From a virus (taxonomy: Duplodnaviria; Heunggongvirae; Uroviricota; Caudoviricetes), in the IMG/VR virus record IMGVR_UViG_2541047435_000017: 6,926 nt of DNA, one strand, 5' to 3'. This document shows, piece after piece, positions 303 to 602 of this stretch. Positions within the stretch are counted from its first letter, which is position 1. Every line of letters begins with the position of its first letter. The translations under genes and the position numbers were made by a program. Below the pieces are notes generated by a model, which worked only from the letters and a program-made list of their open reading frames with translations, ran no database searches and was not told the DNA's origin.

Positions 303-602
303 TTACTCGAGAGGAAATTGGTTATGAATACAATCAAGTTTTCTTGCCCAGAATGTGGTGGCTAAGTCTTTGACACATCCTTTAAGCCGCAGGGCTCTGA
401 CAGTTTCGCGGGAGCCATCTGCAAAAATTGTGGTCACCTTGTAACTGAAGATGAGTCCTCGCAGTTCGATGACGAAATCGTTGACAATATCTTCGGTGCA
501 CTCACCAGAGACTTTCTGAAGTAAAGGCGCATACCGCTTAGTTACCGCTCTGATAACTCTTACCTGTCCGGCAATGGCGCTGATATCAATATAAAGCGCC
601 AT
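303..602 (-). CDS. hypothetical protein (99 aa from first ATG; frame stays open about 46 codons further upstream to a TAA at 743..741)
   Basis: Uninterrupted minus-strand frame of about 146 codons, but the only ATG is at 602..600 and has no convincing SD. Arg codons are enriched in rare AGA/CGG. It is exactly codon-aligned antisense to a plus-strand zinc-ribbon ORF (324-522), so one of the two is probably a shadow ORF. No family recognised. Confidence 0.35.
   Translation of the reverse strand: MALYIDISAIAGQVRVIRAVTKRYAPLLQKVSGECTEDIVNDFVIELRGLIFSYKVTTIFADGSRETVRALRLKGCVKDLATTFWARKLDCIHNQFPLE
324..522 (+). pseudogene. small zinc-ribbon protein (CPECGG ... CKNCGH, Cys-x2-Cys-x21-Cys-x2-Cys, acidic C-terminal tail) interrupted by in-frame TAA at 363-365
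   Basis: ATG at 324 preceded by a strong SD (GAGAGGAA, AGGA at 313-316, 7-nt spacer). Translation is MNTIKFSCPECGG-stop-VFDTSFKPQGSDSFAGAICKNCGHLVTEDESSQFDDEIVDNIFGALTRDFLK, ending at TAA 520-522. Codon usage looks more E. coli-like than the antisense ORF, but the frame carries a premature ochre codon at codon 14. Confidence 0.3.

Follow-up and report, generated by a model that had tools for sequence, protein, structure and literature searches.

Antisense embedded genes have been described in Escherichia coli O157:H7, where RNA-seq and Ribo-seq signals led to ano, asa, pop, laoB and others (PMC5960689, PMC6294744, PMC7103648, PMC5810103, PMC9927249); for laoB, the title of the paper gives an origin by overprinting of an annotated gene. 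Antisense overlapping genes are disputed in bacteria because most candidates lack comparative support. The locus described here lies in IMG/VR virus record IMGVR_UViG_2541047435_000017, a stretch of 6,926 nucleotides that was analysed as a whole and is called the window below. Between approximately positions 254 and 671 it carries an antisense, fully nested arrangement that, judged by comparison of its relatives, is probably a genuine two-gene pair of the lambdoid prophages of Enterobacteriaceae: a short zinc-ribbon gene on the plus strand, contained entirely within the codons of a minus-strand gene that we call geneX. This cassette resembles the O157:H7 cases in that two coding open reading frames (ORFs) lie on opposite strands and annotation pipelines keep one of them. 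It offers strong comparative support, as the two ORFs have signals of their own and have been kept over deep divergence.

The zinc-ribbon protein belongs to NF047912 (the ECs_2282 family), whose namesake is an intact paralogue in prophage Sp12 of strain Sakai that likewise lies between the immunity region and ydfC; the family description is silent on any gene of the opposite strand. The closest described family for geneX is PHROG 21318, whose model starts at an internal Met, whereas the 118 amino acids (aa) of intact E. coli-type alleles are encoded from an in-frame GTG or ATG further upstream, which has a good Shine-Dalgarno (SD) sequence. For the sequence of the window, the Prokaryotic Genome Annotation Pipeline (PGAP) gives the minus-strand ORF (WP_001240336.1; ECs_5719 in Sakai) as a hypothetical protein and leaves the plus strand unannotated. 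PGAP and other gene callers switch strand with the pipeline version and with the integrity of the zinc ORF, and as a result the two products are found in databases as unconnected 'hypothetical' families. In the literature, the pairing itself was not found described, and no paper was found on today's ECs_2282, on ECs_5719 or on the WP accessions. The features of the cassette in the window are listed below.

254-290, plus strand: predicted promoter, with -35 TTAACC (263-268), a 16-nt spacer and an extended -10 TGgTATCCT (282-290)
309-315, plus strand: SD sequence GAGAGGA of the zinc-ribbon gene; an AGGA, GAGG or GGAGG core lies 6-9 nt before the ATG in nearly all lineages
324-524, plus strand: zinc-ribbon gene of the ECs_2282 family, 66 codons, a pseudogene here, recognised by its NF047912 score and by intact coding sequences (CDSs) in relatives
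324-326 and 522-524, plus strand: start codon (ATG) and stop codon of the zinc-ribbon gene
363-365, plus strand: TAA nonsense codon 14 of the zinc-ribbon gene, read as TTA on the minus strand (F80L in the 99-aa ORF)
569-614, plus strand: hairpin (569-607) and T-run (608-614), a candidate intrinsic terminator lying inside the N-terminal codons of geneX
303-671, minus strand: full geneX locus, with SD AGAGGA (666-671), GTG (656-658), a 1-nt deletion between 650 and 651, and the stop codon (303-305)
303-602, minus strand: annotated 99-aa ORF (WP_001240336.1, ECs_5719), an in-frame remnant of geneX from internal Met20
560-658, minus strand: 32-aa ORF from the native GTG in the shifted frame, first residues MGES
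738-767, minus strand: candidate early-left promoter TTGACC-N18-TAAATT, from a consensus scan only, downstream of the repressor gene

Two codon-aligned frames and their signals

The plus ORF (324-524) and the minus ORF (303-602) are codon-aligned antisense partners, as a first-pass annotation of the window had proposed from the letters alone (324-303 = 21), with position 3 of the plus codons facing position 1 of the minus codons. Several other points of that annotation were borne out: the strong SD at 309-315, the in-frame TAA at codon 14, the CPEC...CKNCGH zinc ribbon with its acidic tail (the plus translation reads MNTIKFSCPECGG*VFD...CKNCGH...DFLK) and the long open minus frame, which runs for 145 codons back to a stop at approximately position 741. 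The minus start had been called weak, and the annotated ATG (600-602) is indeed without an SD; what had been overlooked was the native start, GTG 656-658 preceded by the SD at 666-671. The same annotation had treated the locus as a choice between a minus-strand gene and an interrupted zinc-ribbon gene. This either/or choice fails, as the conservation pattern backs both frames.

With codon 14 replaced by Lys, the plus translation matched NF047912 at 56.9 bits (E = 1.5e-15; curated cutoff 37 bits) over positions 1-56 of the 60-position profile, and it also matched PHROG 4852 at 2e-9; the plus frame is thus a real zinc-ribbon gene cut by a stop, one of the two readings that had been put forward for it. 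In relatives at 95-99.7% nucleotide identity an uninterrupted CDS occupies exactly the coordinates of the plus ORF, and current PGAP places an ECs_2282-family CDS at the homologous coordinates in sampled E. coli genomes (94.9-99.7% identity). The region was matched in 937 of the 5426 E. coli genomes searched, and it is a sample of these matches that is described here, together with more distant relatives; the 14 lineages compared comprise E. coli types, two Enterobacter-like types, Klebsiella, Citrobacter, K. michiganensis and three metagenomic lineages. The zinc-gene product is exactly 66 aa long with four Cys in 14/14 lineages. The window has all four (C8, C11, C33 and C36), and they do not vary in any relative; the CPxC ... 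CxxCGH spacing was likewise found intact in the relatives. One protein, WP_001092153.1, is encoded identically by two alleles that differ at 17 of 331 positions. A scan of genome contigs gave only two remote zinc-ribbon matches.

On the minus strand, the 99-aa ORF matched PHROG 21318 with E = 4.6e-67 over positions 1-99 of 99, so that the profile searches recommended for both translations each returned a family. No stop interrupts the geneX frame in any of the 59 haplotypes or 14 lineages, down to approximately 38% identity (the product is ∼38-43% identical to the E. coli type in divergent lineages), and its length varies between 93 and 118 codons, with the whole zinc gene contained in the codon-aligned antisense frame. 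Alignment with ten alleles showed that intact E. coli-type geneX encodes 118 aa from a GTG lying 57 nt (19 codons) upstream of the annotated Met. An SD and a start codon are recognisable in most of the lineages examined: AGAGGA-N7-GTG in the E. coli type (ATG in L133), AGGAGAGGAA-ATG in Klebsiella, AGGAG-N6-ATG in Citrobacter, GGAGGCAGGAAAA-ATG in L093, GGAGG-N4-ATG in L145, GGAG-N7-ATG in L146 and AGAGG-N6-ATG in L148. A change of ATG to CTG in L006 was considered as a loss of the geneX start and rejected, as it is M20L of the 118-aa form. In the D lineage (L100, L110) the geneX frame is open much further upstream, and a possible ATG there would add approximately 35 residues, including a CKSCGY motif. 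Scans of viral contigs with the most divergent geneX proteins gave no match.

In every genomic context geneX is co-directional with the phage early operon. In the E. coli types and in L143-L148 it comes first after the repressor, and in Klebsiella and Citrobacter it follows cro directly. The candidate early-left promoter at 738-767 would drive geneX, ydfC and the dicB region. A palindrome, ACACCGTGCGGTGT (712-725), lies just downstream of the -10 of this candidate and is common to alleles with the same immunity region.

The zinc gene has a putative transcription unit of its own. The upstream element (-35 TTAACC or TTCACC, 16-nt spacer, extended -10 TGgTATCYT) is kept in 9/11 aligned sequences, and its distance to the ATG is constant although the flanking sequence diverges; we infer that it is the promoter of the zinc gene. 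In Klebsiella and Citrobacter only a TATCCT-like -10 is retained in this region, and in L137 the SD is weakened to GAGAAA. The palindrome GCCTG-N14-CAGGC (254-277), conserved in most lineages, overlaps the -35 and may be an operator. Downstream, the hairpin (-19.2 kcal/mol, z = -2.9) begins and ends 45-83 nt past the zinc-gene stop; its stem is retained in 12 lineages, with three pairs changed on both sides, and 8/12 of the hairpin sequences contain a G-U pair, which is possible only on plus-strand RNA. It is likely to be the intrinsic terminator of the zinc-ribbon transcript. An apparent block of conservation that ended exactly at the boundaries of the minus ORF, with an unalignable region upstream of the zinc gene, was discarded as an artefact of ungapped comparison; when indels were allowed the promoter region was conserved.

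Selection and chance in the overlap

Among E. coli-type alleles the ratio of non-synonymous to synonymous substitution rates (dN/dS) was 0.14 in the plus frame versus 1.9 in the minus frame, and a two-frame site-class analysis in the style of OLGenie gave an omega of 0.11-0.24 for the zinc gene. The zinc-ribbon protein is clearly under purifying selection. Substitution patterns, which had been suggested as a means of choosing one frame, thus speak plainly for the zinc gene; for geneX they are favourable outside the overlap and at the A/G sites described below, and show no constraint in shallow comparisons inside it.

Of the antisense frames, the codon-aligned one is the most likely to be open by accident, and a minus ORF in this position would be expected to be a shadow. 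In null trials, nine lineages were simulated with the synonymous codons randomised for one protein. When only geneX was preserved, an open plus frame with an ATG arose in 0.02-0.07 of trials per lineage, and with the four Cys as well in ∼5e-4 per lineage. When only the zinc gene was preserved, a minus frame free of stops across the overlap arose in 0.03-0.23 of trials per lineage, and jointly in the five most divergent lineages at 9e-6, if these are independent. Both frames are open in 9/9 of the simulated lineages and both ORFs are intact in 14/14 of those examined, and the overlapping arrangement is far beyond chance.

The zinc-ribbon domain was also found away from geneX: a 530-aa SNF2-like helicase on a viral contig (L113, 2483-4072) has an N-terminal zinc ribbon, CPHCG...ECGHVVTEDE, resembling the 66-aa protein, and the antisense frame of this segment is full of stops, so the domain exists independently of the minus ORF. 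The Arg codons of the minus ORF (AGA four times, CGG twice, CGA and CGC) are dictated by Ser and Pro codons of the plus strand. The rare ones had been counted against a minus gene in the first-pass annotation; they are instead a consequence of dual coding. More generally, geneX has AGA, AGG, ACA and GCA at precisely those positions where a Ser or Cys is required in the zinc protein. Given the rarity in the null trials, the promoter, SD and terminator of the zinc gene, its independent domain and the codon choice on the minus strand, the proposal that the zinc ribbon could be a chance shadow was rejected.

Two results bear on geneX as a protein. Over its non-overlapping N-terminus (525-599, 25 codons) the ratio of non-synonymous to synonymous polymorphism (pN/pS) was 0.46, the lowest of the six frames, a value reached in 0/500 column shuffles and, with 14 lineages, in 2/400. 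Within the overlap, third positions of the zinc gene that are synonymous for C/T, where changes are K/E, A/T or I/V swaps in geneX, were mixed in 16/18 columns across nine deep lineages, indicating that synonymous sites are saturated; in contrast, third positions synonymous for A/G, which switch Phe and Leu in geneX, were mixed in only 2/8 columns (Fisher p = 0.003). The frozen A/G sites include the non-preferred codons AAG and GAG, and in the zinc gene there is likewise no variation in TGTGGTCAC, a 9-nt block, or in the rare codons ATA and CCA.

The strongest alternative to a two-gene pair, which we regard as somewhat unlikely, is that only the zinc gene makes a functional protein and that the minus ORF either has persisted for a long time as a shadow or is translated so that ribosomes stay on the early transcript, for instance to avoid Rho-dependent polarity, with its amino-acid sequence itself unselected. 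Several observations fit this alternative and weigh against a second protein-coding gene. Inside the overlap, shallow comparisons gave NN/NS 0.99 and dN/dS 1.9 for geneX, that is, no amino-acid constraint (within groups, minus-frame dN/dS was ∼0.9-1.9 and NN/NS 0.78-0.99), and selection on the zinc gene alone can be enough to give NN/NS below 1 at depth. Plus-synonymous sites in the overlap evolve as fast as minus-synonymous sites outside it (0.057 vs 0.055). The conserved N-terminal stretch of geneX partly coincides with the zinc-gene terminator hairpin, which lies in 525-607. The start of geneX is uncertain and its SD weak in the D lineage, and the joint null probabilities take the lineages as independent. 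Codon-usage log-odds trained on neighbouring prophage genes did not separate the frames (0.13 plus vs 0.21 minus). AlphaFold was only moderately confident for geneX (pLDDT 69) and poorly so for the zinc ribbon (pLDDT 54), and fold, PDB, Pfam and PADLOC searches gave no relative of known structure or function for either protein, so that the minus protein is without an informative fold or family match. A literature search for transcription or translation of either strand returned nothing usable. The test for stop avoidance within E. coli-type alleles was underpowered (0 stops seen vs ∼1.3 expected).

Against an unselected minus sequence stand the open frame in every lineage with its own SD and start in most, the frame-specific coding signature of the N-terminus, the frozen A/G sites that decide Phe versus Leu in geneX, and the retention of ATA, CCA, AAG and GAG in the zinc gene. 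Given its start signals in most lineages, the frame-specific constraint and the preservation of the frame in diverged relatives, geneX is most likely not a simple shadow, and we favour a pair of genes. The converse alternative, that the minus ORF is the sole gene and the zinc ribbon a chance product of its GCA and ACA codons, is very improbable: gene callers and older PGAP runs annotate the minus ORF, its family has hundreds of database members, and its codon-usage score is slightly higher and its AlphaFold confidence better, but variation in the overlap peaks at minus codon position 1 and not position 3, the ATG, the four Cys and the 66-codon frame are kept in all lineages and the zinc-gene SD and promoter in most, geneX has AGA or AGG (Arg), ACA and GCA at every site where the zinc protein requires a Ser or Cys, the plus-frame score exceeds the curated NF047912 cutoff, and the motif recurs in an unrelated helicase.

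A doubly damaged copy in prophage Sp9

The window is a lambdoid prophage adjoining ompW in E. coli O157:H7-type genomes: bases 1-1300 are 100% identical to many O157:H7 chromosomes, and 1-6549 share 99.94% identity with Sakai prophage Sp9 and with strain TR01. Its copy of the cassette is doubly damaged. The TAA interrupts the 66-codon frame, which makes this copy a pseudogene of the ECs_2282 family; codon 14 is GAA (Glu) in the tested relatives, strain SS52 and the distant lineage L143 have AAA instead, and 9/9 deep lineages have Phe at the facing position of geneX. In geneX, one A is missing between 650 and 651, so that GTG 656-658 is out of frame (56 nt from the annotated Met) and the shifted frame reads GTG GGC GAG TCA (MGES), where intact alleles have GTG GGC GAA GTC. 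As the deletion puts the GTG out of frame, the 99-aa ORF is a remnant of the 118-aa gene.

Among the sampled loci, a geneX GTG or ATG 57 nt upstream was in frame in 83 and out of frame in the 11 loci of the window type and in SS52. An in-frame GTG was combined with an intact zinc gene in 72 loci, and two more had ATG at this position; in eight the TAA occurred together with an in-frame geneX start, eleven (the window type) carried both the TAA and the deletion, and SS52 had AAA with the deletion. The existence of eight loci with the TAA but without the deletion, and of eleven with both, indicates that the nonsense mutation came first. In O157:H7 SS52, AAA is found on an otherwise window-type allele, giving Lys in the zinc protein and restoring the invariant Phe of geneX; this looks like a T-to-A reversion, and a sequencing difference is also possible. 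A second, independent nonsense mutation of the zinc gene was found in a viral contig (L091), where codon 44 is changed from GAG to TAG, which is synonymous in geneX (CTC to CTA). Since the TAA at codon 14 is F80L in geneX and this TAG is synonymous, both natural knockouts of the zinc gene are silent or conservative in geneX.

Strain Sakai also carries a fully intact pair in Sp12 (ECs_2282 and a 118-aa geneX), and the damaged copy in Sp9 is thus a redundant, decaying paralogue. Its decay is in line with other lesions flagged by PGAP in this prophage, which is decaying in several places (window 1561-2111 and ∼4511-5044): in the near-identical TR01 record the YdaT-family CDS is frameshifted, and a fimbrial CDS is frameshifted with an internal stop. 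The DUF1627 gene encodes 226 aa in TR01 versus 193 aa in Sakai and the window. Neither pseudogene state in Sp9 is recorded in databases, and for the window alone the practical result is modest, namely a decayed copy of the cassette. The locus tag ECs2282 in the 2017 Sakai Ribo-seq tables (PMC5597208, file 4) denotes a 165-nt ORF (2249591-2249755) and today's ECs_2282 is the 201-nt zinc gene of Sp12 (14953-15153 of L142); the published 'ECs2282' values therefore do not apply to the zinc gene.

The gene order in the window is ydfC, the cassette, a helix-turn-helix repressor, cro, a YdaT-like gene, replication genes, paa and hokD, and along the minus strand the repressor is followed by geneX, ydfC and dicB. 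The immediate neighbours of the cassette are the following.

12-230, minus strand: ydfC
866-1273, minus strand: helix-turn-helix repressor

In relatives L004, L009, L135, L137, L139 and L142 the cassette directly adjoins toxin-antitoxin modules (ParE/PaaA2, HigB/HigA, RelE/ParE); in the same relatives the repressor types in its flanks are varied, with a mosaic boundary immediately to the right of the cassette. An Rfam scan of window positions 1-1400 gave no match.

A possible reciprocal switch and its relation to known systems

The predicted signals would place the two genes in opposed transcription units. The zinc-gene unit, with promoter, SD, 66 codons and hairpin terminator, would be self-contained, and geneX would be the promoter-proximal gene of the phage early operon. 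Transcription from the zinc-gene promoter would proceed toward the early promoter and stop at the hairpin, shortly before the ribosome-binding site of geneX is reached, and the early-operon transcript would cover the whole zinc gene in antisense. As the units are convergent and fully complementary, their expression is probably reciprocal. In a lysogen the repressor would silence the early operon, and the zinc-ribbon protein would be made from its own promoter; upon induction the early promoter would fire and geneX would be made, and the choice would be reinforced by transcriptional interference and by pairing of the two RNAs.

We tentatively suggest that the cassette could be a mobile two-strand unit of ∼400 bp that yields two functional proteins from shared codons, an acidic zinc-ribbon protein expressed in lysogeny and an early protein expressed on induction, in a reciprocal switch co-inherited across enterobacterial genera. 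If this is true, few antisense gene pairs known from bacteria or their phages would be conserved as deeply. Natural and designable mutations knock out one frame and are silent or conservative in the other, which makes the arrangement directly testable.

The zinc-ribbon protein shares a generic likeness with other small prophage proteins that have two CxxC knuckles, but scored well below the cutoffs of both the Lar family (TIGR03655; 15.6 bits vs cutoff 39.6), of which it is not a member, and the YnfU family (NF038384; 11.8 bits vs cutoff 36). As a stand-alone protein it might mimic, or compete with, the similar zinc ribbon of the SNF2-like helicase. In its layout the cassette recalls the OOP RNA of phage lambda, a short unit transcribed against the early-operon gene cII close to the immunity region. 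It differs from OOP in that the antisense unit encodes a conserved protein and covers its entire partner, and any regulatory effect would here be one predicted from the arrangement. It differs also from the antisense genes of O157:H7, in that the evidence for it is comparative only and that it consists of two small genes of similar size, which form one mobile unit with both ORFs kept in prophages of E. coli, Citrobacter, Klebsiella and Enterobacter type, down to approximately 38% identity.

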